Shown: positions 4,701 through 56,698, counted from the whole stretch's first letter. The stretch: DNA of 63,593 bases, filler included, from Chthonomonadaceae bacterium (GCA_035650735.1; 5 parts of 5 records of this genome joined end to end with filler, not necessarily neighbours in it); one strand, 5' to 3'. Numbers and translations: made by a program. The notes: generated by a model not told the origin, from the sequence alone.

Positions 4701-5699
4701 TCAGTAGCCGCGCGCGGGATCGTAGAGGTTCTGGAGCGGCAGGCCGTGAAGATATCGCTTGAGGTTGTCGGCGAAGAGGGCGGCGGCGCGCGCGAAGTAG
4801 TGGGGCGTGATGCCGGCAACGTGCGGCGTGATGATCACGTTCTCCATCCGCCAGAGCGGACTCTCGGCAGGCAGCGGCTCCTCCTCAAAAACATCCAGGC
4901 CCGCGCCCGCCAGCCGGCCTTCCTGAAGCGCAGCGATCAGCGCCGCCTCGTCCACGATCTTGCCCCGCGCGATATTGTACAGGTACGCGGTCGGCTGCAT
5001 GTACGCCAACATCCCCGCATCGAACAGGTGGTGCGTTTCCGGCGTATAGGGCAGCGCGATACAGACGTGATCCGACTCGGCCAGCAGGCGCGGCAGTTCC
5101 TCCGGCGGATAGAGCGCATTCGGCACGACGGCGGCGTTGTAGCGCGCCTGTGGATTGCGCTTGGTCGCCACAACCCGCATTTCAAACGCCTTCGCCCGCG
5201 CCGTCAGCGCCTCGCCGATCCGGCCCAGCCCCACGATGCCCAGCGTCTTCCCGGTCAGCTCCTCCGCGCCGCCGCCGGCGCGCGAGCTCCCGAAATGCTC
5301 CCACCGGCCCGCCATCTGCGCCCGCTGGTAAAACGGCATCCGCCGCGTGAACATCAGCATGAAGGCCAGGACGTGCTCGGCGATGTTGGGGCCGTGGACG
5401 CCGCTGGCGCTGGTCAGCAACAGGCCGCGCGTCAGCAGCTCCGGCCTGGCCTTGCCATCCATCCCCGCGCTCCAGAAGCTTATCCAGCGCAGGTTCCGCG
5501 CCGCCGCCACCTGTTCTGCCGAGACGTTGCCGCAGGTAACGACCTCCGCATCCGTAATCGCCTCGCGCACGGCATCGCCTGTCGCAAAGCGCAGCGTCAC
5601 CCGCTCCCGTAACTCTGGATCGCCCTCCACCGCCTGCCGGTAGGCTGCCGCGTCCCCACTCTCCGGCGACAGCAGCACCAGCACAACCGTTCTCTTCAC
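4701..5699 (-). CDS. D-2-hydroxyacid dehydrogenase (NAD(P)-dependent)
   Basis: GIVGLGRIG, NIARG, GAGLDVFEEEPL, ITPHVAG; GTG start overlaps the stop of the upstream gene (GTGA). Confidence 0.92.
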   Translation of the reverse strand: MKRTVVLVLLSPESGDAAAYRQAVEGDPELRERVTLRFATGDAVREAITDAEVVTCGNVSAEQVAAARNLRWISFWSAGMDGKARPELLTRGLLLTSASGVHGPNIAEHVLAFMLMFTRRMPFYQRAQMAGRWEHFGSSRAGGGAEELTGKTLGIVGLGRIGEALTARAKAFEMRVVATKRNPQARYNAAVVPNALYPPEELPRLLAESDHVCIALPYTPETHHLFDAGMLAYMQPTAYLYNIARGKIVDEAALIAALQEGRLAGAGLDVFEEEPLPAESPLWRMENVIITPHVAGITPHYFARAAALFADNLKRYLHGLPLQNLYDPARGY

Positions 5700-6937
5700 G
5701 CGCCGTCCTCTCCCAGCAATCGCCACAGCGCTTCACGGCACTCCGTAAAGCTTATCTCCCGCACCATCGCCTTGGCCGCCGTCACCTGTCCCGGAAAGAC
5801 AATAATTCCGGAAACGCCCATCCCCACCAGAAACCGTACCGCCGTTTCCAGGGTATCCGCAGGGTACTCCTCCCCGCATAGGCTAAACATAGGGTGCGCT
5901 GAGGACGTGACCGGTAACAGGTTCGCTCCTGCCGCCGCCACCAACGCCTCCACGGGCGGCAAGGCGCCTTCATGCAGCCATGTCTCTCGCAGAGTGAGGA
6001 CAAGCCGGGTCGCGCCGCGCGCCGCCAAAGCCTCCACCCGCGCGCTGACTTGGTCTGCATCCGTCTGCTCCGGCACATACACAATATCCGCCGCCAGGCG
6101 CGGCAGGCTGCACACGACCTCATTCTCAAAACACTCCGCCTGCGCCGTCTCAAACTCCGCGCTCAACTCCGTCAGGCCCAGTCCCTCCAGTTCCTCTCTC
6201 GGCGGGACGGCAAGCGTGATGTCGGCGCGCGATGCCGCCTCCAGCACCGTCATCAAGGGCAGGGAATAGTCATCGGAGAGAAGAAGGGGCTTGCCTGCGG
6301 CCCTCTCCACCAGCGCGAAAAGGTTGCGCCGCTGGGCCGCATCGCTGGCGCTTGCAGGCAGCAGGGGAACATCAAAGGGCACGTAGAGCGCATCCGCGCC
6401 CTCCAGCAACGCGGTTTCAACAGCGTCCGCCGTTTCGACGCGTGCCAGAACCTGCACCGCACGGCCATCCAGCGTCTGCGCGGGCAGGTGTTCGCTCTCC
6501 AGGTAGAGGCGGCGCCTGGGGGCCAGGTTGGTATACTCCGCCTGGTATTGGGCGATGGCTAAACCATCGGGGTTGACCAGGACAACGCCGTGCGTGGCAT
6601 CCACCAGCATCAGCATATCGTCCTCAACCATCTCCATCAGGCCGGGCACATTGACGACGGCAGGAATGTCGGAAGCAGGCGCGTCCGGCTCGGCAGTTTC
6701 GGCGGCGATCCCTATCACCTTCGCCCAGGATAATCGCCCCGTCAGCGCCAGCGCGGTCCGATAGTCCTCGGCAACCAGCACGACCTCCGGCGTCTCCGAG
6801 GTGCGCCGAAACCCCGTGCGCGCGGCCAGGCGCGGCGGCGCCTCAGGAGCCATCGGGATGCCGCCGTGCGCGCGCACCACCGCCGCCGTTGCTAACGCTA
6901 TCCCTGCGCCCAATCCTCTGCCGCGCAGACGCGCCAT
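5696..6937 (-). CDS. Degenerate PTS Enzyme I / PEP-utilising enzyme-like protein
   Basis: LRGRGLGAGIALATA, IPAVV..LMLVDATHGVVLVNPD and PAQTLDGRAVQVLARV resemble EI segments; no SHxAIxAR phospho-His motif. Confidence 0.6.
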   Translation of the reverse strand: MARLRGRGLGAGIALATAAVVRAHGGIPMAPEAPPRLAARTGFRRTSETPEVVLVAEDYRTALALTGRLSWAKVIGIAAETAEPDAPASDIPAVVNVPGLMEMVEDDMLMLVDATHGVVLVNPDGLAIAQYQAEYTNLAPRRRLYLESEHLPAQTLDGRAVQVLARVETADAVETALLEGADALYVPFDVPLLPASASDAAQRRNLFALVERAAGKPLLLSDDYSLPLMTVLEAASRADITLAVPPREELEGLGLTELSAEFETAQAECFENEVVCSLPRLAADIVYVPEQTDADQVSARVEALAARGATRLVLTLRETWLHEGALPPVEALVAAAGANLLPVTSSAHPMFSLCGEEYPADTLETAVRFLVGMGVSGIIVFPGQVTAAKAMVREISFTECREALWRLLGEDGA

Positions 6938-6949
6938 CGCGCCCTCCGA

Positions 6950-7690
6950 TTATTGCTGCTCGCCTTCCATCTCGCCGATATGGAGTTCAATGTCGGCGCG
7001 CTCCTCGATTTTGGCGATTTTGCCGTCGCGGATCCAGACGATGCGGTCGGAGACGTCCACCATTTTGAGGTCATGCGTGGCCGAGATGACCGTCACGCCC
7101 TGTTCGCGGTTGAGGCGGCGCAGCAACTCGATGATCTCCGTGCCGGTCTTGAGGTCCAGGTTGCCCGTCGGCTCGTCGGCCAGGATGATGGAGGGGCGAT
7201 TGGCCAGCGCACGGGCGATGGCGACGCGCTGCTGCTGACCGCCGGAGAGCTCGCTGGGGCGGTGATGCAGGCGATGACCGAGGCCGACCAGGTTGAGCAG
7301 CTCAATGCCGCGCTCAATGCCCTCATCCGTCGGCATCCCCGCAAACACCGTCGGCAGCGTCACGTTCTCCAGCGCCGTCATCACCGGAATCAGGTTGAAT
7401 GTCTGGAAAATATAGCCGATGGTGTGGCAGCGCAGATAGGCCAGTTCCGCCGCGTCCAATTGCGCCATATCTACATCGTTGATAAATACCGAGCCTTCCG
7501 TCGGCTTGTCCAGCCCCCCGATAGCGTTAAAGAGGGTGGATTTGCCGGAGCCGGACGGCCCCATGATAGAGATATATTCGCCGCGCCGGATGTCCAGGTC
7601 CACTCCGTTGAGGGCGCGCAACGTCTGATCCCCCATCGTGAACTCTTTGACCAGTCCTTTGGTGCGGACGACGTATTCATTCGTTGCCAT
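6950..7690 (-). CDS. ABC transporter ATP-binding protein, LolD/MacB family
   Basis: GPSGSGKST, IGYIFQTFNL, LSGGQQQRVAIARAL, ILADEPTGNLD. Confidence 0.95.
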   Translation of the reverse strand: MATNEYVVRTKGLVKEFTMGDQTLRALNGVDLDIRRGEYISIMGPSGSGKSTLFNAIGGLDKPTEGSVFINDVDMAQLDAAELAYLRCHTIGYIFQTFNLIPVMTALENVTLPTVFAGMPTDEGIERGIELLNLVGLGHRLHHRPSELSGGQQQRVAIARALANRPSIILADEPTGNLDLKTGTEIIELLRRLNREQGVTVISATHDLKMVDVSDRIVWIRDGKIAKIEERADIELHIGEMEGEQQ

Positions 7691-7706
7691 TCGCAATCCT
7701 TTCTTA

Positions 7707-7803
7707 AGGGTATAGGGTGCAGGGTATAGGGTGTAGGGTATAGGGGGTAGGGTGTGGTGGGCAGCATCCGAAGGCTCTTCCTACACCCTATACCCTACAC
7801 CCT
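7707..7803. repeat. G-rich heptamer tandem repeat (AGGG-T/G-R-Y) x7 with 3 inverted copies
   Basis: 7707-7755 agggtat agggtgc agggtat agggtgt agggtat agggggt agggtgt; 7783-7803 acaccct ataccct acaccct. Confidence 0.9.
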
Positions 7804-7807
7804 GCTT

Positions 7808-8467
7808 TTAAATTTCTGAGCGCAGGGCGACCGCCGGGTGCATTTTGGCGGCGCGTATCGCGGGTGGGATGGCGGCAAAGAGGGTGATCGCCGCGCCGAT
7901 GCCCACCGATTGCAGCATCTGGAGCAGGGTGCCCACCCAGAACTCGCCGCCGAACGCTCCCAGGCCATCCGAAAAGATATGGATCAGAGCGATAATCAGC
8001 CAGCCGACAAACCAGCCGGCAAACGAAGCCAGCAGGCCCATCAGGATCGCTTCGATGAAGAAGAGCTTGACGACAAAGCTATCCAGCGCGCCGAGGCACT
8101 TCATCGTGCCGATCTCTTTGAAGCGCTCGGTCACCGACATCAGCATCGAGTTCATGATGCCCACAAAGCAGACCAACAGCGCCATCACGGCCAGCCACTG
8201 CTGACGGTGCGCGGCGGCGGTGATCTCGGCCAGCCGCTCCGGCGTCATGCCGGGGCCGATGTGGGGCGTAAAGAGCCCTGCCGTGCGCACCGAACTATAG
8301 AAGGCTATCCCTAGGAAGATACCGGCCGCCGTGATAAGCGAACGCGCCAGACGTATCTTGATGCTTTTGATGCTGATCTGCCACGCCTTGCTGAAGGGAA
8401 GCTGTATTTGCCGCTGCACCTTCATCGCCGCAGGACGTGTGGCTTGCTCTAGCTGCTCTGCGCTCAT
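7808..8467 (-). CDS. Small FtsX/MacB-type ABC permease (4 TM, almost no periplasmic loop)
   Basis: GIMNSMLMSVTERFKEIGTMKCLGA and C-terminal PAIRAAKMHPAVALRSE. Confidence 0.92.
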   Translation of the reverse strand: MSAEQLEQATRPAAMKVQRQIQLPFSKAWQISIKSIKIRLARSLITAAGIFLGIAFYSSVRTAGLFTPHIGPGMTPERLAEITAAAHRQQWLAVMALLVCFVGIMNSMLMSVTERFKEIGTMKCLGALDSFVVKLFFIEAILMGLLASFAGWFVGWLIIALIHIFSDGLGAFGGEFWVGTLLQMLQSVGIGAAITLFAAIPPAIRAAKMHPAVALRSEI

Positions 8468-8483
8468 AGCGTTGTCATCTCCC

Positions 8484-8924
8484 TCAGGATTTCTTGCCGA
8501 CTTTTTTATAGAACCCGATAAAATTGCGCTCGTGGAGCATCTGGAGAAACATGGTCACGGAGACTTCCGCCTCGCGCCGGTTCATCTTGTACTGCCGGCC
8601 CGTCTTCTGAACGATGGACTCAATGGTATGGTGCCCGTCGCACAGCTCCCAGACGTAGCCTCCGACCTCATCCAATTCCACATGCCGCGCGTTGGGCACG
8701 TTCATCCACTTAGCGAGCCAGCGCGTCATGCGGCCCACCTTCTGGTTTTGCGGCACGGTCAGTACCGTCTCACCGCTGTCGCGCTTTTCCCAGGACAGCA
8801 GGGAGTTGCGGCCCGGACGCAGGGTCAGCGCCGCCTGCCGGTCTACCTGCGGCGGGCGGATCTTCAGGAATGGCAGATGGCGGCCTATTCCATAGTAGAG
8901 CCGCATCTTCAGTGGCATACGCAT
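8484..8924 (-). CDS. PqqD-family (RiPP recognition element-like) protein
   Basis: ELDEVGGYVWELCDGHHTIESIV...FLQMLHERNFI fits the PqqD/RRE pattern (L..G..IW..CDG..T...I ... FL..L). Confidence 0.8.
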   Translation of the reverse strand: MRMPLKMRLYYGIGRHLPFLKIRPPQVDRQAALTLRPGRNSLLSWEKRDSGETVLTVPQNQKVGRMTRWLAKWMNVPNARHVELDEVGGYVWELCDGHHTIESIVQKTGRQYKMNRREAEVSVTMFLQMLHERNFIGFYKKVGKKS

Positions 8925-9991
8925 CGGTTCACAACCTCGGTCAAAAGCCCCTCCGTGCGCGCGCTGTGGAGCACCTGCAGGGCATAGATTTTATTCGATT
9001 CTGCGCATGCCCAAATGCTGCCCTCAAATCGGGTCGGGATGCGGCCCAGCGCGCCCAGCGATTCGCGCAAAGCCCGAATACGCGCAAACAGCGAAAGCCG
9101 CCCGGAATAGCGCTCCGCCTCATGCCCCTGCGGCGTGGTGAACGTCTCTTTTTGCAGGCCCTTGAGGCGCACGGCGGCGTTGTTGGCAAACCACTCCCCC
9201 AGGGTGAATTTCTTGAGGGTCATGTTCGCCAGCCCCCACCGATCCAGCAGAATCTTCTCGCCCCCGCGCGCAAACGCCAGATGGAGGTATCCGGAGAGCA
9301 GTTTCTGAGTCTCCAGCCGGAAATCCTGCGGTATCTGGGCCTGAAGGTCGTAGAGCGCCCAGAGGGTGTAGCCGTTGTCGGAATGGTCGTGCAGGGAGGC
9401 AAACAGTTGGGAGGCGATGTCGGCGATGGCGTGCTGGTCTTTGGCCGCGCCGACCACCTGCGCGATGACGACGCGGTTGCAGGTGGCGCAATGCCAGATC
9501 TTGCCCTGCCCGCGCCCGTTGCCGCTCCAGGTGAAATTGATCGCCATGCGCTCGTCGTGCTCGCCTTCGGTTTTTTCCGGCTTAATGCTGCTCTCGAACC
9601 TGGATTTGGCTTTTTTGGCCTGCCGGGCCGTCTCCTTGAGGACGCGCTCCAGGTTGCCCTTGAGATCGGGCTTGGGCGTGGGCGGTTCCGGGCGGCGCAG
9701 CAGCTTACGCACGCGCGACGCCAGCAGGTTATACAGCGTTGGTGCGTTGTTGCCCTGCGAGGCGGCGTCCATCCAGCGTATCTGCACGGTCAGGGCGCTG
9801 TTGCCGGGCGCATCCACGCGCAGATAACCGCTCTCATGCTCCATCGAGAAGCCGGTCACGTTCCAGTCCGGCGGCAGGACGCACCGAATGCCCTGCCATC
9901 CCACGACCGTGCGCGTCTGCGAAGCGGGAGGCGCCGTCTCGGTCTCGGCTAGAGATTGGGACGGTTGGTTGGTTTCAATTTCTGTTGGCAT
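8909..9991 (-). CDS. Hypothetical protein with two internal repeats
   Basis: 360-aa ORF overlapping the PqqD-like gene; repeated W..(L/I)P.D(W/F) and IWxCxx(C/S)N motifs. Confidence 0.75.
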   Translation of the reverse strand: MPTEIETNQPSQSLAETETAPPASQTRTVVGWQGIRCVLPPDWNVTGFSMEHESGYLRVDAPGNSALTVQIRWMDAASQGNNAPTLYNLLASRVRKLLRRPEPPTPKPDLKGNLERVLKETARQAKKAKSRFESSIKPEKTEGEHDERMAINFTWSGNGRGQGKIWHCATCNRVVIAQVVGAAKDQHAIADIASQLFASLHDHSDNGYTLWALYDLQAQIPQDFRLETQKLLSGYLHLAFARGGEKILLDRWGLANMTLKKFTLGEWFANNAAVRLKGLQKETFTTPQGHEAERYSGRLSLFARIRALRESLGALGRIPTRFEGSIWACAESNKIYALQVLHSARTEGLLTEVVNRCVCH

Positions 9992-10013
9992 ACCCTATAA
10001 TACGGATTTCAAA

Positions 10014-10850
10014 CTACTTTGGCGCGACGGCTTCCACCCGGCCATCGCAGTAGAGAATGTTATTGCGCCCGCCGTGCCGGCCCGGATGCGGCAGGCTGGT
10101 CACGGCATCGTGCGCGCTTGGAGCGAGATTGGTCGAGTCATAGAGCAAGGGCGTTGCCGCCGCGTCCGGCATCTCTTTGAGCGGCTTGCCGTTGAGCTTG
10201 CGCCCCGCCACCTGATCGTTATAGGCGTAGCCGTATTTGTCGTCGTGGCGGTTGGAGACGGCGGGACAGTGCAGCCACTCGTTCTGCCGCACTTTGGAGG
10301 TCAGGTCCTCGTTTTGCATCCAGTTGGCGGCAGGCGGCAGTGCGCCGTAGTCCTCGGCATACATCGAGAAGGCGATATACAGGCTCTTCAGGTTCTCCGG
10401 GCAGGCTTTGTTCTTCTCCGGCTCATACTTAGCCGTCTTTTGGTCCAGGCCCAATTGCTTGGCGACGCGGATAACCTCCGGGTGCTTGGCGAACGCGCTC
10501 TGCAAGATGCCCCCGACGGCCCCTGCGACCAGAAGCGCGACGCCCACAGTGGTCAGCAGCGTCGCCCGCTGCTTGATGACGCCGGCCAGGAACCCGCCAA
10601 GCAGCGCCAGCACCCAGGCCACGGCCACGCGCATCGCTTCCTGCGTGACAATCGGCCCGATCTGTCTTGCGGGGGCCCGGGCCCCCGCAAGCAGCCCGGC
10701 TGCCAGCAGCAACGCCACCGCAATGACCGTAATCGCCGCCACCGTTCGCCGGCGTGTCAGCAGGCCCACTGCAAACCCTGCAAGAAACACGCCAGCCGCC
10801 AGCACTATCGCGGCTATCTCAATGGTATGAAGAAGAGCCTCGATCTGCAA
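10014..10850 (-). CDS. Membrane-anchored DUF1559-like / H-X9-DG protein
   Basis: About four N-terminal hydrophobic helices; CPENLKSLYIAFSMYAEDY..LPP core; C-terminal H-GGRNNILYC-DG. Confidence 0.8.
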   Translation of the reverse strand: MQIEALLHTIEIAAIVLAAGVFLAGFAVGLLTRRRTVAAITVIAVALLLAAGLLAGARAPARQIGPIVTQEAMRVAVAWVLALLGGFLAGVIKQRATLLTTVGVALLVAGAVGGILQSAFAKHPEVIRVAKQLGLDQKTAKYEPEKNKACPENLKSLYIAFSMYAEDYGALPPAANWMQNEDLTSKVRQNEWLHCPAVSNRHDDKYGYAYNDQVAGRKLNGKPLKEMPDAAATPLLYDSTNLAPSAHDAVTSLPHPGRHGGRNNILYCDGRVEAVAPK

Positions 10851-10859
10851 AATGACCTA

Positions 10860-11430
10860 ACCCCCTATAGCGGCAGGCTGAACCCTGCCGCTGTGGGGCT
10901 CTGCTAGGGTCGGCGCTACAATGGTTCGCGCCTCCGCCTAGCGAGGCCATCCGCCCACCTGCGTGGGCGGGAAAAGCCGGTAAGATGCCAGGATCGCCGC
11001 CATCCCCTCTGTGGGTAATCCTGATGCCTACGCAGGCAGAGAGTCTCGCTCCCGCAGGTAGGTGGCACTCTAACCTCAAGGCGCTGCCTCGGACGCTTGA
11101 TCACACTTGCGCAGGCAGAACGTTTCGCCCACAAGGGTGTCGCCAGGTGTCGCTAGACGGAGGAACGAGCGAGCGCAGTTGCGACCCTCGCAGTGGCGCG
11201 AACCGTTGCAGCGCCGACCCTGGCAGTCGGCGGGCGTCTTGCTCCCCACAGCGGCAGGCTAAACCCTGCCGCTTGCCAACCGCCCGTCGTGGAGAGAGGC
11301 CAGGCGAACTTACCTGCCCCTCTAGCCCTTCCCTAGTGAGGAACGAACTATCCGCCGCTACGAAGAGGACTACCCAGTCCTAAAACCTCTAGCCCTTCCC
11401 TAGTGAGGAACGAACGGATAGGGAAGGGGG
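10860..11430. repeat. Composite intergenic cluster of REP-like palindromes
   Basis: GCGGCAGGCT(G/A)AACCCTGCCGC twice, CGCCCACCTGCGTGGGCG, GCCGACCCT(G/A)GCAG modules and a 30-nt direct duplication (11319-11348, 11386-11415). Confidence 0.8.
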
Positions 11431-11434
11431 CCAG

Positions 11435-13534
11435 CTAGAACGGCAAGTAGTTGACGGATTTGGCGATCAGCGCCAGCGCGATAGAGGCCATGGCAATCAG
11501 GCCCGTGCCGCAGGAGAAGCCCGCCAGCAGCACCGGCGTATACATGCGCCAGTTCTCCACGCCGAAGCGCTTGGAGAAGTACCGGCGGCCCAGCCACGCA
11601 CCCAGGAAGGTCGGGATGACATCGTGCGGGAAGGCGCCCGTGCCGCCGATGAACCCATAATAGAACAGCGCCGGCAGCTTGAACAGGCCGAATATCCAGT
11701 AGAGCGCCAAGCCGGCCCCGATCCCGCCCAGCACGCGCGGCCCGTTGATCGCCTCTTTGACCCAGGAGATGCCGCCGTCTTTCCGGTTGATCGTATTCCA
11801 CATCGCCTGGAACGTCGCCTGGATCGGCCAGAATTTCGCCGCATAGGGATGCTGCGACGAGGGAATCTGGCTCGTATGCCAGAAGAAGGCCCAGAAGATG
11901 AAGCTGGCCGGGAGCATGACAAACAGCATCAGGATCTCAACCTTGACCACGCTGACAAACTTGGTGCCCGTCAGCTCCACCTCCCGGAACTTCTGCGCCA
12001 GACCGCCGTAGTCGGATAGCGGGATGGGCATGTACCAGATGTCGGCGTAGGGATAGCCCGATTTCATAATCGACACTTCCTTGAGGAACGGGAAGGTCAC
12101 GCCGGAACCCGTCAGGCCCACCATACGCGCCGAGACATAGGAGTTGATCGGCGACCAGACCAGGCCGTAGAAGACCAGTAGCCAGGTCGGGAATATCATG
12201 TGGTTCTGGCCGGTGCGCACCGTCTCCACGTGCAGCAGGAAACGTACAAGCCCGATATAGAAGACGGTCACGCCAAGCCAGACCACCACCGGAATCCAGA
12301 GGGGAAGATCGCCGCGCCCCTTGGGAATCTGCATCTTCATCCCGCGATTGCGTGTCTGGTCACGCAGGCTCTTAAACGCCCTTCCCACGCTCCAGAAGCC
12401 GATAAGCGCTACCGCCACCTGCAAGCCGATACCGACCGATATCCAGAACTTGATGTCGGTGGCCTGCTTGGTGAAGATGGCGTCCATACCGCGCGCCCAC
12501 CCATTCGTGGCGGAGGAGCCGAACGCGCCCCAGTGATAGAGGATCGGCGCGGCGACAATGCGGCAGAGAACCGAGCCCCACAACGACCCATGCACGATGG
12601 GGTAGGGGATGACGAACCCGACCAGGATCTTGGTCAGGTCCCCGGAGATGCCCGTAATGGCGCCCGGAAGGATGGTCTCCGTATTCGTCGTCAGGTCGAA
12701 GAAGGGGATGGGGATCAGTGTAAAGGCTTTATTAAAGACGACGCCGGTAAAGACCGGGACGGCGATGTAGAAGAAGCCGAAGATCAGCCCGATAACCGTG
12801 CCGGTAGAGAAGACGCGCCAGCGCCAGGATTCTTCCTTGCTGGCCGCTTCCGCCAGCGCCGTCGCGCCGGAGGCGGCGACCGGGGCCATCGGGAACGGCA
12901 GCCGCTCGACATCGGAGGTGACGCGGAACAGGAAGTAGCCCGCGCTCATCCAGTTCAGGCGCCCCAGCACCTCTCCGACGACGAGCAGAACGATAGGCCA
13001 GAACCAGGCCATATCGAAGAAGGTGCGGTGCTGGAGGGCCGGTGAGCCGGCTGGCGGCACGACCCAGTGCGGGATGTCCTTGGCGACGATGCTGGCGGCA
13101 GGGCTCTGGATAAAGTATTGATTCCAGATAAGATAGCCGAACGGCCCGCCGGAGATGCCCTTTTCCGCCCAGATACCCGTCAGGGACGCCGCCACATAGT
13201 AGAGCATATAGATTTCCTGCTTCTTCATCGGCAGGAACGAACGGCGCATGATCTCGGCGAACAGGACGATGGTCACCCATTCCGCCGCCGGGCCCAGACC
13301 CTGTCCGGCCACCAGGCCCAGGTAGAGCGCGCCGGGCAGCATGATAAACCCGACGAAGAGCGCTCCGATGATGGTCTTGTAGCTGAAGCCGTCTTCGAAT
13401 TGGGTAGGCTGGCCTTCCTCGGTCGACTCCGCCTCGACTTGCTCCCGTATTTGCGCGATCTCTCTATCTTCCGCCACGCTACGGAGTTCTCCTTTCACGC
13501 ATATTAACACAGCGTGCGTTTTTGTTTTTAGCAA
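11435..13534 (-). CDS. OPT-superfamily-like putative peptide transporter
   Basis: Many TM helices; ERLPFPMAPVAA resembles the OPT L.FP..A motif; exact start uncertain. Confidence 0.72.
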   Translation of the reverse strand: MLKTKTHAVLICVKGELRSVAEDREIAQIREQVEAESTEEGQPTQFEDGFSYKTIIGALFVGFIMLPGALYLGLVAGQGLGPAAEWVTIVLFAEIMRRSFLPMKKQEIYMLYYVAASLTGIWAEKGISGGPFGYLIWNQYFIQSPAASIVAKDIPHWVVPPAGSPALQHRTFFDMAWFWPIVLLVVGEVLGRLNWMSAGYFLFRVTSDVERLPFPMAPVAASGATALAEAASKEESWRWRVFSTGTVIGLIFGFFYIAVPVFTGVVFNKAFTLIPIPFFDLTTNTETILPGAITGISGDLTKILVGFVIPYPIVHGSLWGSVLCRIVAAPILYHWGAFGSSATNGWARGMDAIFTKQATDIKFWISVGIGLQVAVALIGFWSVGRAFKSLRDQTRNRGMKMQIPKGRGDLPLWIPVVVWLGVTVFYIGLVRFLLHVETVRTGQNHMIFPTWLLVFYGLVWSPINSYVSARMVGLTGSGVTFPFLKEVSIMKSGYPYADIWYMPIPLSDYGGLAQKFREVELTGTKFVSVVKVEILMLFVMLPASFIFWAFFWHTSQIPSSQHPYAAKFWPIQATFQAMWNTINRKDGGISWVKEAINGPRVLGGIGAGLALYWIFGLFKLPALFYYGFIGGTGAFPHDVIPTFLGAWLGRRYFSKRFGVENWRMYTPVLLAGFSCGTGLIAMASIALALIAKSVNYLPF

Positions 13535-13674
13535 ATTACAATGAATTCACGGTAGACACTCCCAGCCGTGTGGATCAATCTCACGCAGCCTGCTGCTGAG
13601 GAGATACGTCAACACCGTTGGGAGGGATTACCGAATTCACGGGCAGGTGTCCTTTACCCGTCAGCGGGTTCAGA

Positions 13675-14303
13675 TCATTTCACGCCCGCTTGCTCCAGCG
13701 CTTTGCGAATCCCGTCCTCATCAAAACCGACAAAGCGGGCCAGAATTTTGCCATCGCTGCCGATCAGGTAATTGGTCGGGATGGCCTGCACTTTGTACTG
13801 GTCGGAGACCTTATCGCCGCTCATGGCGACGAGCATAGTAAACTTACTTTCCTTCCAGTATTTGGCGATCGTCTTCGCGTCGTCGCCCGCAACTGATTGA
13901 GCATATCGGGATTGAAGAAGACCGCACCCTCTATAGAAATGGTGCGCCCAACATTACCTCCGGTTGCGTCGGCAGCCTCGGTCGCGTATGTCTTCTCCGA
14001 ACGCCGATAGGTAGTGAGCGTCTTGCCATCCGAAGGAATAATCGTATTCATATCGGCAGCCGAGCTTGAGAGCGCTATGTGCGCCAGGTTAGGCTTTTTG
14101 AGCCGGAGAGTGCCCTGCGCCGTCTTAATAACCTGCCCGCCTTCTTTCACCTGCAGAATAATATGCGCCTGCAAGGTTCTGGCGCGGCTTTCGGCGGCGA
14201 CGCACTTTTGCAGGAGCGCATCCCCAGCCTTATCGGCTTGAGCGGCAGTCGGAACAAGTAAACAGATCCCTAGAAACGCCAGAAAGGGATTCGTGCGTTT
14301 CAT
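13675..14303 (-). pseudogene. LolA/DUF2092-like N-terminus joined out of frame to a TlpA-like redoxin C-terminus
   Basis: Signal peptide plus GTLRLKKPNLAHI..SDGKTLTTY; a second frame from 13890 gives AGDDAKTIAKYW..YKVQAIPTNYLIGSDGKILARFVGF..stop at 13675; no CxxC. Confidence 0.65.
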
Positions 14304-14392
14304 GGATGTAGCCCTCCCTCTGAGGACAGTCCCCAATCTCGGCCCCTACTGCTAGGGTTGGGCCTGCCGCTTTAGAGCCGAGGGGTGGGGGC

Positions 14393-17300
14393 CTACCCCG
14401 CTGGCGAGGGCTCCGGTCCCATCGCCGGCGGGGTCGGCGCGCTGACGGTCTGCGCCTTATTGTTCTCTGCTTCTAGCAGATAGCGCTCGCGCTCGGCCTG
14501 CTTGAGCGTACGCCAGATCAAGAACTGCTTGCGCAGCGTGTTCAGGAACCGGCGGTTGACCCGCTTCCAGTTGGAGATGTCGCCCGACTCGCGGTCGATG
14601 AGCAGGCGGATGTCGAACACGTCCGGCGTATCCGTCGGTGTCGTCTCCACGGCGACGCGCTGCGAAACGCCCAGGTCGAACGGGGCCAGCCACGTCATGC
14701 ATTTGATGCGGTAGCCTTTGCCGTTCTCATGCTGGAACTCTTCGGACTCCACGCCCTGGGTCACGAAGTCGCCGATGCTGTACTCCTCGTAGGCGGCAAA
14801 CCACTCGCCCAGGAAGCTGTTGAGGCCGGCAGCCTGCTCGCCCGTGACGGCAAACGGCAGCGGGATAACCCAGTGGTCGCCCTCCGGCTCCGGCACGCGC
14901 CATGTGCGGTCAATGGCGGGCGTCGCCACCTCCGCCGCCTTGCGCGCCGGATAGAGCGTGGAGAGCAGCACCACGCCGACCACGATCAGCGTCGTCATGA
15001 CCGCGCTCACGCTGGAGAAGTTCAGGTACAGGTCCGGCAGCCAGCCCGTCCAGACCAGTATCTTACTGGTGAATTGGCCCAGCAGATACCCGGCCACCGA
15101 GCCCAGGATGGCGTAGACCAGCGCCTCCGCGATGAACAGCATCCCGATATGGGACGGGGCGAGACCAATCGAGGAGAAGATATGGATCTCCTTGATGCGC
15201 TCGAACACCGACCCCAGCATCGTGTTCAAAACGATCAGCGAGGCGATCAGGATCGGGAAGAACACCAGCTCCAGGCCGCGCGAGGAGGTCGCCGCGATGG
15301 ACGAGTACCGCTCGATGTGGCCCCGGTCGCGCGGGTTGGGCGCGTTCGGGTTGGTGATCTGGCCGGCGTAGAGGTTGAGTCCCAGGCGATGCATCAGCGG
15401 GTCGAGGCGCTGCAGCACGGCCTTCGGGTCGCCGAAGTCAATGGCAATGGAGCGGATCTCCGCGCCAATGTTGACCGCCGTCTGGTAGGGGATGAAGAAG
15501 ACCATATCGGGCTCCAGGTGCGTGTACTCCTTGAAGCCCTGGTCGCCGCCGCCCTTGCCCTGCCGGTTGAGCTTGTTCATGGTGATGAAGTCTACCGGCG
15601 TCAGGATTTCGTTGTCGAGGTCGGCGAAATCCTTGAGTTTTTGCGAGTCGAGGATGCCGATGACCGTGTACTCAACGCCGCTGTAGGTCACCTTCGCCTT
15701 GCCCACGTCGGCGGGGTCAATGCGCAACTGGTTGGCGATGGCGTCCGGCAGAATCATCACATAGCGGTCGCCTGGCTGGAACCAGCGCCCGATGGGTCTG
15801 CCCTGGTTATCGGTCTCCAGCGCCTCCTGCGGACGGGTGATCTTGGCCTCGGCGGGCGACAGGCCGACCATCGCCTTCGCCTCATACTGCTTATCCGCGC
15901 GCTTCAAGGTCAGGAACGACTGCTCGCCAAGCTGCGTGCCGAAGTACCAGGCGCGCGGCGCGACGGCGTGCGTGCGCCCGTACTCGTCGGCCAGCAGGCG
16001 GTAGGCCGGCTCCTGGAGCGGGTCCCACATGGCCGTGCGGATCATGATGCCGTTGTAGCGCGGGCCGTGCTCGTTGGGCGCGGGGACCCGGTTGAAGCGC
16101 ATCGTCTGCACGACCGAGGTGAACGACAGCACCGTAAAGGTCAGCAGGATCAGGGTGATGCAGGTCAGGAAGGTGCGCGCCTTGCGCCGCCGCATGTTGG
16201 AGATGCCCAGGTTAAAGGCGGCCAGCGCCACCGAGACGCGCCCAATGTCGGCCTTGTGGATGCCGCTGACGCTGCGGTTGATCTCCTTGAGCTGTTCCTC
16301 GAACTTGCCCGCGATCATGGCGATCACGATGGAGGAGAGCGCCAGCATGACGAAGGCCAGCAGCACGATGATCGGGTTCATCGTGATGTCGAAGGCCGGG
16401 TGCACGAACCGGAAGCAGAGGAAGATCGCCAGGAAGATCAGGGCCGCGACGCTCAACTGCCGCTTCAGGTCGAAGAAGCCCCAGATCAGGCGCTCGGCGA
16501 AGTAGGCGAAGGGCAGCAGCAGAGCCAGGTAGAAAAGCACGCCCTGCACGACGTCAATCGCCGTCTGCTGCACGTCGGGATAGGCGCGGCTCTCGAAGCC
16601 CCAGGCGGCGCGCGAGGCGGCGTCGAAGGTCTCCCAGTCCTTGGCGTCTTTGGCCTTCTGCGCCCGCGCTATCGCCTCCGCCGCCCGCTTGTGCAGCCCC
16701 GGCACGCCCTCATCGCTGTTCATGTCCAGGATGCGATACTTGGCCAGGCGGCGCATGCGGAAGTCGTCGAGCTTCCACATGTCCTCGGCGACGTGGAGCG
16801 CCGTGTCGTAGATGGCCCCGGACTTGGCGATCTCTTTGGTCGGATCGTAGGAGACCTCTTTGGCGATGCCCATCAGGTCGGCGTTCTGCGCCTCGCGCGG
16901 GTCGCCCGCCACGAGGTAGCCGATGCCTTCGGGATTGTAATTGGGGTCATCCTTCTTATTGAAGGGGTCGCTGGGGTCGTACTGCGAGTTGATGAGCAGC
17001 AGGCGAGTGGCGCCGGGGCCGCTGTTCATCGAAATCTTCAGACGCGAGCCTGGCTGCGAGAACAGCACCGCCACATCCTCGACGTAGGAGCCGACCAGCG
17101 AGGGGTCCTGCGGGTCAATGGCGTAGCCGTACATGCGCGGCTCGCCGTTGGTCTCGCCATCGTAGACGTCAATGCCCGTGAGCGCGCGCAGCGACTGCTG
17201 GTCCACCAGGTCGTAGATGGCGGTGGGCACGCAGCGGAAGACGATGATCGGCGTCTCCTTGACGGCGGTGGTCACCAGCACATCCAGCGGGATGTATTTG

Positions 17301-19399
17301 GCGCCCGTCATGCCCAGGTCGGGAGCGTAGTCAATCTCGCCGCGCGCAGGGTTCGCTACCGGATTGCCCTGCGCGTCCTTGAGGATCGTCTTGCCTGTGC
17401 TGTCGATGGGATTGGTGCGATACTCCCGGTTATCGAGATGGTAGGCCGCCAGCAGCGCCGGCTTGTTGTAGCCGTAGGCGGTCAGCGGCGCGACGCCGTG
17501 GAAGGCGAAGAAGTTCTCGAAGGGCACGGCGCGTCCCTGCTTGTCCAGCGCCTCGCCTTTGGCGTTAAAGACGGTCGGGTGGTTCTCCGCGTCCGTGACC
17601 ATGTCGGCCATCCTCTCCGGCGTGGACCACTGCGAGCGCTGGATCATGTTGCCGCGCACGCCCATGAACGACTTGGTGCGGTTGCGCACGACCACCAGCG
17701 AGTCGGCCAGGCGCGGGTCGGAGCTGGCAATGAAGGATTTGCGCGGGTCAAACATCTCCACGCGGCCTTGCAGCGTGGAGAAGCCGCCCTGGAGGGCCAT
17801 CCGCGACCACTTGGAGGGGTCGGTGATGGGCATGCGCTGCGCGTTCACATCGCCCGGCGCATTGGTATCGGTGACGATGTGCCACATCAGGCAGGCGAGG
17901 AGCTTGACCTGCTGATCCAGGTTAGAGATATTGACCTGTCCGGCGCGGTCGAAGGGCGTATCCACAAGGGCGCGGCTGTCATCCGTGGAGGCGAAGGTGA
18001 CGCCGTTGCCGCCGGCCATCGTCACCGCCTCGGAGTCGAAGGCGGGCTTGCCGGAGATGTAGTTGCGCCAGTTCTTGCCGTCTACGGGGTTGATGCCGTC
18101 GTTGAAGAAGCGCTTGGAGTCGAAGCCCAGGGTGTTGCCGATCTTCTCGGCGTTCTCGCGGCAGACGCGGGCGATGTCGCTGAACTTGCCCTGGATGTCC
18201 TCGCGATAATCATAGAACCAGCCCTTGTAAAAGATGCCGACGGAGCGCGTCTGGCTGGTCAGGTCGAGCCCGCACCAGAGGTAGATGTCCTTGACGGGAT
18301 GCTTCTTCTCAAACCAGCCTGCCGGCGTCCACTCGTCCATGTGCGCGTTGATGTACTCGCGGATGCCCTGGAGGGCCTGGAAGTGGCCGCTGGTGGCGAC
18401 GAACATCATGGAGCGCTTGGGAGGGTGGGCCTTGAACGTGCGGGCTAGCTCCAGCAGTCCCGCCATGCCGCAGGCGGTGTCCGCGCCGGGCGCCAGCGCC
18501 GGCACGACCGAGATCGAGTCGTAGTAGGCCTGGACGACGATAATCTGGTCTTTGAGCTTGGGGTCAGTGCCCTGAATCCAACCGGTGATGTTGCGGGCCT
18601 TGCGGGTCTGCCAGGGCATATTACAGGTGAGCTTGACCGTGGGCGGGCGTCCGCTGGCGCAGGCGGCCAGCAGCGGGGCGGCGTCAGCCTTGGACATCCA
18701 GAAGCGCGGGATGGAGATGGGAATGGAGATAAACTTGGCTTCCGCCTCGCCGCGCATGGTGGTGGTGGGTGCCACGAAGATGACGGCTTTCGCGCCGAGC
18801 CGGGGCGCGTTGAGCCACTCTTCGGCGGAGTTGAAGTCCACCATGACAACGGAGCCTTCGACGTCCTTGCCGTTAAAGTTGCGCAGCTTGCCGTCCCCGA
18901 CATAGATCAGGGGCGCGGTGAGGCCGTCTACGGGCAGCGTGGAGGTGCGGATCAGGTTGGGCCAGAGCGGATACATCCGCAGCTTGGGGCTTGCGCCTGC
19001 GCTCGCCTCGCCGGATCGGGCTTGCAACTGAGCAAACGCGCCCTGATCCGGGTTATCCACGCCGGGATCGTAGGGGACGGTGACGGGAAACTCGTCTACC
19101 TGCACGTTGCTCAGGCCCAGCGTGCGGAACTGCTGCTCGACGTAGTCGGCGGCCTTCCTATCGCCGGGATAGCCCGCCACGCGCGAGCCGAAGCTCGCCA
19201 GCGTGTTGACGGTCGCACGCATCCGCGCCGGGTCAATGAACCCGCTGTACTCGCGATAGGCGTCCTGAAGCGGCTTGGGGACATCGGCTGCCCGTGCGCG
19301 CAGCATACAATAGGAGACGAGCAGCAGCGCGGCAGCGGCGACTATCTTAGGAAGATGGCGGTACGGGCTTCTCTGAAGGCTCTTCCACAGATAAGGCAT
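14393..19399 (-). CDS. Large membrane protein: PA/M28-fold ectodomain + multi-TM + MacB/FtsX permease domains
   Basis: SRVAGYPG, AYYDS..APGAD..GLLELAR; NMRRRKARTFLT; LNTMLGSVFERIKEIHIFSSIG; YPARKAA; GAAAGGGA RBS before ATG 19399. Confidence 0.88.
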   Translation of the reverse strand: MPYLWKSLQRSPYRHLPKIVAAAALLLVSYCMLRARAADVPKPLQDAYREYSGFIDPARMRATVNTLASFGSRVAGYPGDRKAADYVEQQFRTLGLSNVQVDEFPVTVPYDPGVDNPDQGAFAQLQARSGEASAGASPKLRMYPLWPNLIRTSTLPVDGLTAPLIYVGDGKLRNFNGKDVEGSVVMVDFNSAEEWLNAPRLGAKAVIFVAPTTTMRGEAEAKFISIPISIPRFWMSKADAAPLLAACASGRPPTVKLTCNMPWQTRKARNITGWIQGTDPKLKDQIIVVQAYYDSISVVPALAPGADTACGMAGLLELARTFKAHPPKRSMMFVATSGHFQALQGIREYINAHMDEWTPAGWFEKKHPVKDIYLWCGLDLTSQTRSVGIFYKGWFYDYREDIQGKFSDIARVCRENAEKIGNTLGFDSKRFFNDGINPVDGKNWRNYISGKPAFDSEAVTMAGGNGVTFASTDDSRALVDTPFDRAGQVNISNLDQQVKLLACLMWHIVTDTNAPGDVNAQRMPITDPSKWSRMALQGGFSTLQGRVEMFDPRKSFIASSDPRLADSLVVVRNRTKSFMGVRGNMIQRSQWSTPERMADMVTDAENHPTVFNAKGEALDKQGRAVPFENFFAFHGVAPLTAYGYNKPALLAAYHLDNREYRTNPIDSTGKTILKDAQGNPVANPARGEIDYAPDLGMTGAKYIPLDVLVTTAVKETPIIVFRCVPTAIYDLVDQQSLRALTGIDVYDGETNGEPRMYGYAIDPQDPSLVGSYVEDVAVLFSQPGSRLKISMNSGPGATRLLLINSQYDPSDPFNKKDDPNYNPEGIGYLVAGDPREAQNADLMGIAKEVSYDPTKEIAKSGAIYDTALHVAEDMWKLDDFRMRRLAKYRILDMNSDEGVPGLHKRAAEAIARAQKAKDAKDWETFDAASRAAWGFESRAYPDVQQTAIDVVQGVLFYLALLLPFAYFAERLIWGFFDLKRQLSVAALIFLAIFLCFRFVHPAFDITMNPIIVLLAFVMLALSSIVIAMIAGKFEEQLKEINRSVSGIHKADIGRVSVALAAFNLGISNMRRRKARTFLTCITLILLTFTVLSFTSVVQTMRFNRVPAPNEHGPRYNGIMIRTAMWDPLQEPAYRLLADEYGRTHAVAPRAWYFGTQLGEQSFLTLKRADKQYEAKAMVGLSPAEAKITRPQEALETDNQGRPIGRWFQPGDRYVMILPDAIANQLRIDPADVGKAKVTYSGVEYTVIGILDSQKLKDFADLDNEILTPVDFITMNKLNRQGKGGGDQGFKEYTHLEPDMVFFIPYQTAVNIGAEIRSIAIDFGDPKAVLQRLDPLMHRLGLNLYAGQITNPNAPNPRDRGHIERYSSIAATSSRGLELVFFPILIASLIVLNTMLGSVFERIKEIHIFSSIGLAPSHIGMLFIAEALVYAILGSVAGYLLGQFTSKILVWTGWLPDLYLNFSSVSAVMTTLIVVGVVLLSTLYPARKAAEVATPAIDRTWRVPEPEGDHWVIPLPFAVTGEQAAGLNSFLGEWFAAYEEYSIGDFVTQGVESEEFQHENGKGYRIKCMTWLAPFDLGVSQRVAVETTPTDTPDVFDIRLLIDRESGDISNWKRVNRRFLNTLRKQFLIWRTLKQAERERYLLEAENNKAQTVSAPTPPAMGPEPSPAG

Positions 19400-19572
19400 G
19401 GATATTTCCCTTTCATTGGGAAAACGAGCGAACACAGAGACACATGGGGGGACGTCTTGGTCGTTCGTTTTTGCTTACGGCGGTTTCAGCGCAGGGGTAC
19501 GTGCTATTCTGCGCTAGGATTTATGCATATCAAGGCAAATAGGAAAGTACAACGGGGCTTTTTGCACCCCTG

Positions 19573-19601: not shown

Positions 19602-20088
19602 GCATCCCGGCAATCCGCCGCATCCACGCCTGGCATGCAGCGGAACGGCGCCCTAGGATTCGACACGGAGGGGTCTTCTTCCTCTTTGACGCTCAAAAGC
19701 CCCAAATGTGACAGTCCTGGCAGGCCCGGCAGGATGGCAACACAGAGGAGAACTGGATTGATTACTTTATGGAATTATTTTGCGTAGCGTGCAGGAATAC
19801 CAGGAAGTCACTGCGAAGTCAGGGGTAGGCCCGGCCTCACCCGGCCTTCAAAATCCCGCCCGCACGCTCCTGGCCGGCTTCGTCTCCTTAAGCCCCATCG
19901 AGAAGACGACGTTTCGCTCACCCAGGTAATCTACGACGCCGGGATTCCCTTCCATGCGGCCCGGCGCTGGCTTGCGCAATCCTCGTGTATCCGGCCGGGC
20001 GGGGTTGGCACGGCGGCAGCGCGCAGTCGTAGCACGCGCCGTCGCCTCTCTTTCAGTTGTACCTGCATCTGATAAGGAGAGACCCGTT

Positions 20089-20679
20089 ATGAAATGCCTT
20101 CTGCAAGCCATTCTTCTCACGGCGGCGATAGCGCTTCTCGCCCCGACCAGTCAGGCCCAGGCCTTCATGGCCGATCTTACCGGGGCAAGCGAATCTCCAC
20201 CCAACACCTCACCGGGAACCGGGCAAGCCCTCGTTATCCTCGATCCAGTTGCCGATACTATGCATGTGCAGGTGAGCTTTAGCGGCCTGGAGGGGACGAC
20301 AACGGCCTCCCACATTCACAGCGCGACGGCGGCTCCCTTTACCGGCAACGCGGGCGTCGCAACGACGGTTCCTACGTTTCCTGATTTCCCGTTGGGAGTG
20401 ACCAGCGGAACCTATGACCGTCTGTTCGACATGACGCAGGCCTCGTCGTACAACCCGGCGTTTATCACGGCGCATGGTGGGACGCCGGCCAGCGCGGAGG
20501 CGGCTCTTTTCGACTCGATCATGGCGGGGACGGCGTACCTGAACATCCACACCAACGTTCACCCTGGCGGCGAGATTCGGGGCTTCCTAGTCCCTGCCGT
20601 ACCGGAGCCAGGAGTCCTGGGCCTGCTGGGAGGGCTGGGTGTGTGCGGATCGCTGTTGGCCCGGCGTCGGCGCTGCTAA
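20089..20679 (+). CDS. CHRD-domain protein with PEP-CTERM sorting signal
   Basis: Signal peptide, LTGASESPP, SHIH, YLNIHT..PGGEIRG; C-terminal VPEP-hydrophobic-RRRR; AAGGAG RBS. Confidence 0.92.
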   Translation: MKCLLQAILLTAAIALLAPTSQAQAFMADLTGASESPPNTSPGTGQALVILDPVADTMHVQVSFSGLEGTTTASHIHSATAAPFTGNAGVATTVPTFPDFPLGVTSGTYDRLFDMTQASSYNPAFITAHGGTPASAEAALFDSIMAGTAYLNIHTNVHPGGEIRGFLVPAVPEPGVLGLLGGLGVCGSLLARRRRC

Positions 20680-23239: not shown

Positions 23240-23339
23240 NNNNNNNNNNNNNNNNNNNNNNNNNNNNNNNNNNNNNNNNNNNNTTAATTAATTAANNNNN
23301 NNNNNNNNNNNNNNNNNNNNNNNNNNNNNNNNNNNNNNN
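23240..23339. other. Artificial contig linker
   Basis: N-run containing TTAATTAATTAA. Confidence 0.98.
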
Positions 23340-42551: not shown

Positions 42552-42651
42552 NNNNNNNNNNNNNNNNNNNNNNNNNNNNNNNNNNNNNNNNNNNNTTAAT
42601 TAATTAANNNNNNNNNNNNNNNNNNNNNNNNNNNNNNNNNNNNNNNNNNNN
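42552..42651. other. Artificial contig linker
   Basis: N-run containing TTAATTAATTAA. Confidence 0.98.
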
Positions 42652-53077: not shown

Positions 53078-53177
53078 NNNNNNNNNNNNNNNNNNNNNNN
53101 NNNNNNNNNNNNNNNNNNNNNTTAATTAATTAANNNNNNNNNNNNNNNNNNNNNNNNNNNNNNNNNNNNNNNNNNNN
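53078..53177. other. Artificial contig linker
   Basis: N-run containing TTAATTAATTAA. Confidence 0.98.
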
Positions 53178-56598: not shown

Positions 56599-56698
56599 NN
56601 NNNNNNNNNNNNNNNNNNNNNNNNNNNNNNNNNNNNNNNNNNTTAATTAATTAANNNNNNNNNNNNNNNNNNNNNNNNNNNNNNNNNNNNNNNNNNNN
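56599..56698. other. Artificial contig linker
   Basis: N-run containing TTAATTAATTAA. Confidence 0.98.

Follow-up and report, generated by a model that had tools for sequence, protein, structure and literature searches.

A conserved, uncharacterized gene set combining a giant FtsX-type permease, an OPT-fold membrane protein and a type VII ABC motor in Armatimonadota and other bacterial phyla

The closest described relatives of the gene set reported here are the ATP-binding cassette (ABC) systems of type VII, among them MacAB-TolC, LolCDE, FtsEX-EnvC, YbbAP-TesA, YtrEF and HrtBA. The gene set lies in a 63,593-nucleotide stretch of DNA (filler included; here called the window) from Chthonomonadaceae bacterium GCA_035650735.1, and we refer to its principal genes as G, O, U, P, F and A. 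What it shares with the type VII systems are the FtsX-type domains of four transmembrane (TM) helices that both G and F contain, the MacB periplasmic core domain of G, and an ATPase of the LolD/MacB/FtsE family (A), and mechanotransmission would be expected of it as well. It differs from them in that G is extended at its N terminus by about 1,050 residues and has a 180-residue cytoplasmic tail, that its partner permease F has no periplasmic domain, and that the constant OPT-fold partner O and the pair formed by the PqqD protein P and the tandem-PsbP protein U have no counterpart there. According to PMC12646458, E. coli has four type VII systems, none of which has the G-O-U-P-F-A make-up. None of the equivalog models of the LolC/E, MacB, FtsX, LolD and PqqD types reaches its cut-off with the proteins of this locus, the LolD model giving 236.9 bits against a required 307.75. 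On the sequences, the system is a variant of the type VII ABC kind, and its reading as a new type of importer is plausible.

The combination of a loop-less with a domain-bearing FtsX module would resemble the asymmetry of BceAB-type permeases, in which a single chain joins a loop-less FtsX half to one bearing a large extracellular domain; in the present locus, the two halves are encoded separately as F and G, no BceS-like kinase accompanies them, and both heads and partners differ. O has the fold of the OPT family (TC 2.A.67; barley YS1, 7wst and 7wsr) but no Pfam OPT match, and it is co-inherited with an ABC permease, whereas the known members of that family are stand-alone secondary carriers. 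The likeness to ECF transporters, in which exchangeable S components share an energizing module, is one of logic only, since a genome can hold several G-O pairs but a single F-A motor; the folds are unrelated, and the coupling of F-A to G-O is a predicted one. Nicalin, nicastrin and the transferrin receptor are M28-fold proteins without peptidase activity, and the PA/M28-like head of G has likewise lost the catalytic residues, but G is bacterial, is fused to an ABC permease, and keeps the residues that replace the active site conserved.

The locus was analyzed on window positions 1-23239, which form one contig of a 6.5-Mb Armatimonadota genome that is 97.6% complete. The window consists of several contigs joined together, with runs of N at 23240-23339, 42552-42651, 53078-53177 and 56599-56698. 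Between 6950 and 19435, eight co-directional genes separated by short gaps lie on the minus strand, in the order G, L remnant, O, H, U, P, F and A, as follows (with the basis of each assignment in parentheses).

14393..19435, minus strand: G, giant permease (Pfam, PDB profile matches, hydropathy, conservation)
13678..14336, minus strand: L, remnant of a decayed gene for a LolA-like and thioredoxin-fold protein (comparison with the homologue in locus L023; weak LolA/DUF2092 matches)
11435..13534, minus strand: O, OPT-fold polytopic membrane protein (AlphaFold2 [AF2] model, Foldseek, distant relatives in Pfam OPT)
10014..10850, minus strand: H, protein with four TM helices and a C-terminal H-x9-DG motif (hydropathy, motif)
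8909..9991, minus strand: U, tandem PsbP/Mog1-like cytoplasmic protein with conserved Cys and His (AF2 model, fold matches, alignment)
8484..8924, minus strand: P, PqqD/RRE-like protein (Pfam PqqD at 50 bits; fusions)
7808..8467, minus strand: F, small permease of the FtsX type that lacks a periplasmic domain (Pfam FtsX, hydropathy)
6950..7696, minus strand: A, ABC ATPase of the LolD/MacB/FtsE family (ABC_tran, motifs read)

The genes that the initial annotation had described from the sequence alone are all present at their places on this strand, with its end of the cluster at 19399 falling on G residue 13, and its calls of a pseudo-peptidase in G, an OPT-like protein in O, a PqqD domain in P and a loop-less FtsX permease in F were borne out by Pfam, Foldseek, hydropathy and active-site counts. 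It had also stated that it knew of no characterized system with such a composition, and our literature searches, judged mostly from listings and abstracts, found no published description of the G-O-U-P-F-A gene set. A promoter scan, run together with a terminator scan, found 4 candidates against 3.8 expected from shuffled sequences and thus did no better than the shuffles.

The G-O-U-P-F-A system is real, intact, conserved and uncharacterized: the gene set recurs in several bacterial phyla, and the present locus is an intact copy of it in an Armatimonadota genome. The arrangement is far beyond chance, because the same order recurs in other genomes. We found O in 39 of the 41 Chthonomonadales genomes, including all 32 of high quality, and in 20 loci picked from these 39 genomes the order G-O-H-U-P-F-A is kept in 19, while in the 20th the retrieved stretch ends within the set. 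The sequence of A is 82-91% identical in the 19 loci that reach it. A scan of one genome per species yielded at least 550 loci with a relative of O, and the analysis retained the best 80 of them (at least five repeat genomes among the 20). A called O is present in 79 of these best 80 loci, which come from Armatimonadota, Abditibacteriota, Planctomycetota, Gemmatimonadota, Latescibacterota, Omnitrophota and Desantisbacteria. Of the 61 loci with at least 5 kb of upstream sequence, 44 have G directly upstream of O, and U-P-F-A lies downstream of O in 28 of the 58 with at least 4.5 kb downstream. Where no U stands beside O, a U homologue was found elsewhere in the genome in 10 of 10 cases, and in loci L103 and L104 it is part of a separate U-P-F-A module.

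The same association is seen among 201 evenly sampled Planctomycetota genomes, surveyed with thresholds of E ≤ 1e-60 for G and E ≤ 1e-10 for U. O was found in 32 of these genomes and G in exactly the same 32 (0/169 among the rest), while U was found in 17, all of which are within the 32 that carry O and G. Fisher's test of U against O gives P = 3e-16, a value that is overstated since kinship keeps the genomes from being independent. The tree of O agrees with taxonomy. Four of the U-negative Planctomycetota genomes were inspected: the first holds the complete cassette, its U being divergent, the second has A and a 530-residue F upstream of G-O, the third has G-O-A, and the last has G-O only within the retrieved stretch. 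From these patterns, the core is G-O with A (and F), and U-P is frequent but not universal. The initial annotation had joined three peptide-related folds and a probably heterodimeric type VII ABC in one machine that captures, imports or exports peptides or proteins, and had named co-occurrence across phyla as one check of that idea. Co-occurrence is what we found, in the order-wide synteny, the G-O adjacency across phyla, the identical profiles of G and O and the nesting of U within them. The idea is thus supported in part: G and O are co-inherited, but H is a lineage add-on, and U-P is absent or has diverged beyond detection in part of the genomes that carry G-O. One Planctomycetota locus (L115:3-1592) shows the order F-A-G-O, with an F-like open reading frame (ORF) of 530 residues that reaches the edge of the stretch, and is a variant without U-P.

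Natural gene fusions join the smaller proteins. PqqD and FtsX occur in one 378-residue ORF (L057:13433-14566), and U and PqqD occur in one ORF in two loci (L108:15824-17230, 469 residues; L110:6337-7950, 538 residues). Judged from these P-F and U-P fusions, U, P and F appear to form a chain on the cytoplasmic N terminus of F. Long open frames had also suggested O-U and G-O fusions, and these were rejected as artifacts of overlapping frames in GC-rich DNA.

The copy numbers of F and of the G-O pair are different. F is single copy in all five genomes searched, while G has three copies in genome G044 and four in G048, where O likewise has three and four, and all 32 of the O-bearing Planctomycetota genomes have at least three O matches. 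We also compared the divergence of G (its last 760 residues) with that of O for 28 pairs of adjacent G and O genes in 18 Planctomycetota genomes, ten of which contain two pairs. The G and O distance matrices correlate with r = 0.83, the best value among the 1,024 possible within-genome swap arrangements; each single swap of partners lowers r, and swapping all of them reduces it to 0.42. With the true arrangement the best of the 1,024, adjacent G and O genes appear to have stayed together through old duplications, which fits cognate partners, while joint duplication alone could have started the pattern.

G has 1680 residues when counted from the first GTG (19435). ORF calls in GC-rich loci over-extend starts; the likely start of G is at 19399, and the ESM Atlas record of G begins at residue 13, which is window position 19399. 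Its N-terminal part consists of an anchor (residues 27-45), a PA/M28-like head and then an ectodomain of about 600 residues; its C-terminal part consists of three extra TM helices (about 962-1040), a MacB-type module and the 180-residue cytoplasmic tail. By Pfam and hydropathy, the MacB-type module comprises TM1, the periplasmic core domain (MacB_PCD) and TM2 to TM4. The Pfam matches are to Peptidase_M28 at 282-366 (38.4 bits, cut-off 21.3, covering only profile positions 1-81 of 193), MacB_PCD at 1088-1282 (35.6 bits, cut-off 27) and FtsX, PF02687, at 1392-1501 (55.4 bits, cut-off 25.5). When compared with PDB, the head profile matches the PA-domain aminopeptidases 2ek8 (E = 4e-23) and YwaD (E = 1.5e-19), nicalin (E = 2e-7) and the transferrin receptor (E = 1e-7), while for the permease part MacB, YtrF, LolF and LolC are the closest relatives with a solved structure. 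We found no PDB sequence relative for the mid-ectodomain (profile positions about 350-1170) or for the cytoplasmic tail, the best Pfam match of the tail having an E value of 0.059, and in the ESM Atlas the mid-ectodomain and tail gave only unnamed clusters or no usable match.

By these matches, the head of G probably folds like a PA/M28 aminopeptidase, but it lacks the catalytic Glu-Glu pair and mostly also the first zinc histidine. Among 63 sequences, the position of the first zinc histidine of M28 is Y in 51, F in 8 and H in 3; the position of the catalytic Glu is H in 60 and never Glu; and the position of the zinc-ligand Glu is F in 42, H in 8 and Y in 5, again never Glu. In the same alignment D306 is D in 62 sequences, position 319 is E in 44 and D in 16, and H351 is kept in 60. 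With the replacing residues themselves conserved, the M28 site of G appears to have been remodeled and not merely to have decayed.

The remainder of G is also well conserved, the mean share of the top residue being 0.64-0.81 in the extra TM helices and up to 0.87 in the tail, which matches the FtsX core. Residues 962-1680 of G correspond to window positions 14393-16552. Within this part, residues 962-1586 match the PADLOC profile PDLC01991 "CARF_m8--CARF_LolE_TM" (E = 2.5e-52, profile positions 73-633 of 810), so that the match runs from the extra TM helices through the MacB module and into the tail, of which it covers the first half; the tail alone matches it weakly (E = 0.0022). By this match, a headless form of the G-type permease appears to be catalogued in PADLOC already. 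G differs from that entry in that the profile has no head and in that neither Pfam nor PDB sequence profiles recognized a CARF domain in G. Ligand sensing is a possible role of the tail.

O has 699 residues as called and 680 in the database gene call, so its start is probably at 13477. It gave no Pfam match even at E ≤ 10 and so does not reach the gathering threshold of OPT (PF03169), while its family forms 919 representative clusters, and 4 of the 20 distant relatives scanned pass the Pfam OPT cut-off (P0243 with 56.5 bits). In Foldseek searches, the AF2 model of O (pLDDT 84.7) matched the barley YS1 structures 7wst (E = 1.2e-9, TM-score 0.57/0.65) and 7wsr (E = 1.9e-9) with a probability of 1.00 and TM-scores of 0.57-0.66 over the two. 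These were the sole matches at E ≤ 0.001, the next having an E value of 0.012, and the sequence identity of O to YS1 is 13-14%. The model thus assigns an OPT fold to O. Some O homologues of 950-1080 residues (P0139, P0133 and P0127) contain PDZ or Reg_prop beta-propeller inserts near query residue 580-590. Polytopic membrane proteins with DUF6785/DUF6784 adjoin two G genes that have no neighboring O (L075:1476-3410 and L111:14369-16441) and are candidates for another type of carrier that partners G; when the O alignment was compared with such a neighbor by hhalign, the probability was 1.7%, which is not significant.

U has 360 residues, its gene overlaps that of P by 16 nt, and hydropathy analysis found no hydrophobic segment in it. 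Pfam and NCBIfam scans assigned U to no sequence family. Its conserved residues in the alignment are C168 and C171 (a CxxC motif), H203, C329 and the C-terminal C359 and H360. In the AF2 model (pLDDT 92.1), residues 26-203 match 2xb3 (VIA Z 14.0, root mean square deviation [rmsd] 3.0, 141 aligned residues) and residues 205-360 match 3hlz (VIA Z 12.5, rmsd 3.4, 123 aligned residues), Foldseek matches to PsbP start at E = 3.8e-6, and the structure also matches SciW with Z 9.2. As modeled, U consists of two PsbP/Mog1/DUF1795-fold domains in tandem. P has 146 residues and matches PqqD, PF05402, with 50 bits (cut-off 23.4), but falls below the cut-offs of the lasso, PQQ, Scm and GeoRSP PqqD models. 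F, with 219 residues, consists of an FtsX domain only (PF02687, 66.7 bits, cut-off 25.5), and by hydropathy it has four helices with about 35 residues between TM1 and TM2, where MacB carries its periplasmic domain. A has 248 residues and an ABC_tran match of 121 bits, with LolD, MacB and YbbA as the nearest NCBIfam models, all below equivalog cut-offs; its Walker A, Q-loop, signature, Walker B and H-loop motifs are all readable.

Together, we read these genes as a conserved, intact and uncharacterized system in which a predicted G:F:A2 type VII ABC motor would work with O and U-P, probably in the uptake of peptides or similar oligomers, a reading to which we give somewhat less than an even chance. 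In this arrangement, G would pair with F in the way of the asymmetric BceB halves or of LolC/LolE, and two copies of A would complete the motor. ATP binding in A would move the periplasmic parts of G, as in the mechanotransmission of MacB, LolCDE and FtsEX. The head of G would capture a ligand and hand it to O, which would carry it inward. U-P, tethered to the cytoplasmic N terminus of F, would bind either the cargo or O on its cytoplasmic side, and would gate the motor. In genomes with several G-O pairs, one F-A(-U-P) motor may serve all of these receptor-carrier pairs. Peptides are the first guess as the cargo, prompted by the PA/M28 head, the OPT fold, the PqqD domain of P, the PDZ inserts in some O homologues and the peptidases among the flanking ORFs, which number 7 of 77 (Tricorn/S41 in three loci, an M16 pair in one locus, one M28 and one M24), a count that stands without a background rate.

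Several observations weigh against this proposal. To our knowledge, the known type VII ABC systems (MacB, LolCDE, HrtBA, YbbAP and FtsEX) expel or extract their substrates, and none is known to import. U-P is not detectable at E ≤ 1e-10 in 15 of the 32 Planctomycetota genomes that bear G-O, and of the U-negative genomes inspected, two lack U, P and F in the retrieved stretch, while U and P are missing from a third. In Fimbriimonadia, and in part of the other phyla, G and O do not lie together. A search of longer proteins found no G-O, O-F or O-U fusions, which is weak evidence, and the peptidase neighbors are few and come partly from kin.

A more specific form of the uptake proposal is possible, though we consider it the less likely outcome: a novel primary active importer, in which a shared type VII motor (F and A, with U-P as the adaptor) would serve interchangeable G-O pairs, and work done in the periplasm would load O.

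H, L and E appear restricted to particular lineages. H has 278 residues, four hydrophobic segments and a C-terminal H-x9-DG; it stays below the cut-off of DUF1559 (17.3 bits against 23.3) and has these four segments instead of a single one of the prepilin type. It is present in all 20 Chthonomonadales loci, while outside loci of the Chthonomonadales type we found only weak matches in three loci at other positions and one more just upstream of U in L104. H is thus a lineage-specific accessory and not a core component. Between G and O, a 171-residue ORF (13821-14336) is part of the decayed gene L, whose homologue in L023 encodes 399 residues with a LolA-like part and a thioredoxin part with CxxC and AhpC-TSA/Redoxin domains. 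The remnant keeps residues 13-158 and 330-399, in different frames, and residues 159-329, including the CxxC, are gone. Genes of the L type were found only in close relatives within one family and are not part of the core. The genes flanking the cluster are as follows.

5696..6937, minus strand: E, truncated Enzyme-I-like (phosphoenolpyruvate-utilizing) protein, a neighbor only in Chthonomonadaceae and not core
4701-5726, minus strand: 2-hydroxyacid dehydrogenase, following E
19954-20679, plus strand: CHRD-domain PEP-CTERM protein, divergent upstream gene
21058-23082, plus strand: AMIN + Amidase_3 cell-wall amidase, divergent upstream gene

E begins 12 nt downstream of A, and E and the dehydrogenase hold the same place in 7 of the 20 loci, all from the family Chthonomonadaceae. 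A PqqD protein beside a protein like those of the phosphotransferase system resembles other PqqD cassettes. The amidase at 21058-23082 was considered as a partner and rejected, since none of the 20 relatives' loci has it close to the cluster. In three Fimbriimonadia loci (L038:6615-9872, L046:5625-8951 and L047:5281-8856), where O is not linked to G, the gene immediately upstream of O encodes a Tricorn-like S41/PD40 peptidase, and in L046 and L047 a GH5 gene comes next. An Armatimonas locus (L045:14725-16218) has, after the ATPase, a separate 498-residue protein that matches the M28 profile over positions 1-190 of 193.

The alternative that survives best, although we judge it improbable, is that the G:F:A2 complex pulls a hydrophobic or lipid-linked envelope component from the outer leaflet and passes it outward through the head of G, with O as a feeder or flippase and U-P delivering or sensing the precursor in the cytoplasm. 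Characterized type VII ABC systems all act outward or laterally, in line with published abstracts, and the nearest solved relatives of the G permease, MacB, YtrF, LolF and LolC, point the same way. This reading also gains from the LolA-like/thioredoxin gene between G and O in close relatives, but that gene is confined to one family and is decayed in the present genome. SciW, to which U matches with Z 9.2 and which belongs with the PsbP/DUF1795-fold proteins, is a chaperone for hydrophobic segments. On the other side, the LolC/E model TIGR02212 gives only 18.2 bits with G and 37.9 bits with F against the 362.45 required, the characterized OPT members are importers, and six further FtsX permeases of MacB or LolC size in the genome could serve Lol transport or efflux.

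Slightly less probable still is a role in hydrolase regulation and recycling, in which the dead M28 head of G would bind and activate a periplasmic hydrolase in an ATP-dependent manner while O imports, and U-P senses, the released peptides. A degenerate peptidase domain on an FtsX-type motor would parallel FtsEX with the dead LytM domain of EnvC, as described in published abstracts, and the conservation of the remodeled site (D306 in 62/63, E or D at 319 in 60/63 and H351 in 60/63) also favors this role. Active peptidases do adjoin the genes in some loci, but no hydrolase gene is a conserved neighbor, and the AMIN-amidase is absent from the loci of all 20 relatives. The genome also contains, elsewhere, a 307-residue FtsX-domain ORF of canonical FtsX size, which counts against this role and led us to reject the idea that the system replaces FtsEX.

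That there is no joint system, and that an orphan ABC transporter, a stand-alone OPT protein and unrelated cytoplasmic proteins are conserved neighbors working separately, we hold to be very improbable. The unlinking of G, O and U-P-F-A in some lineages would favor such independence, but the genes co-occur even when unlinked (10/10 genomes; 32/32 against 0/169), and both the natural fusions and the cognate divergence of G and O argue against it.

Two further explanations rank lowest, each with hardly any probability in our estimate. A role in the export of, or immunity to, a peptide made on the ribosome and modified after translation (RiPP) or a bacteriocin, with P as the leader-binding RRE and G/F/A as a MacB-type exporter of the modified peptide, would agree with the PqqD domain in P and with the resemblance of A, below cut-off, to DarD and bacteriocin-export ATPases, but the nine proteins scanned include no precursor or maturase family, there is no conserved small ORF (the O-H gap is 585 nt in the window but 13 nt in L005), P reaches 40.3 bits against a cut-off of 80 with the lasso-PqqD model, and the set stands among housekeeping genes in 32/32 high-quality genomes of the order, so that a RiPP cluster was rejected for its lack of precursor or maturase and the universality of the set in the order. 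An anti-phage or CRISPR-ancillary membrane effector, suggested by the match of PDLC01991 to G 962-1586 (E = 2.5e-52) and weakly to the tail alone (E = 0.0022), is countered by a vertically inherited core set that is universal in the order, with an O tree that follows taxonomy, by the failure of Pfam and PDB sequence profiles to find a CARF domain, and by the lack of a match to any other PADLOC system protein beyond a generic ABC ATPase, cas genes not having been searched for.

If the importer reading, which extends the preferred uptake proposal, is true, the system would be the first inward-working MacB-type system and its O the first OPT protein coupled to ATP, and its modular logic would be akin to that of the ECF transporters. 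An obligate, co-diverging G-O pair with a shared motor and an adaptor of its own would link the type VII ABC and OPT worlds, and could reveal a new coupling of ATP to uptake or to envelope handling. The fusions, the copy-number pattern and the cognate-pair result point to concrete constructs for biochemistry. Because the set is present in 32/32 high-quality genomes of the order, it is likely to be part of the core physiology of Armatimonadota, a poorly cultured phylum.

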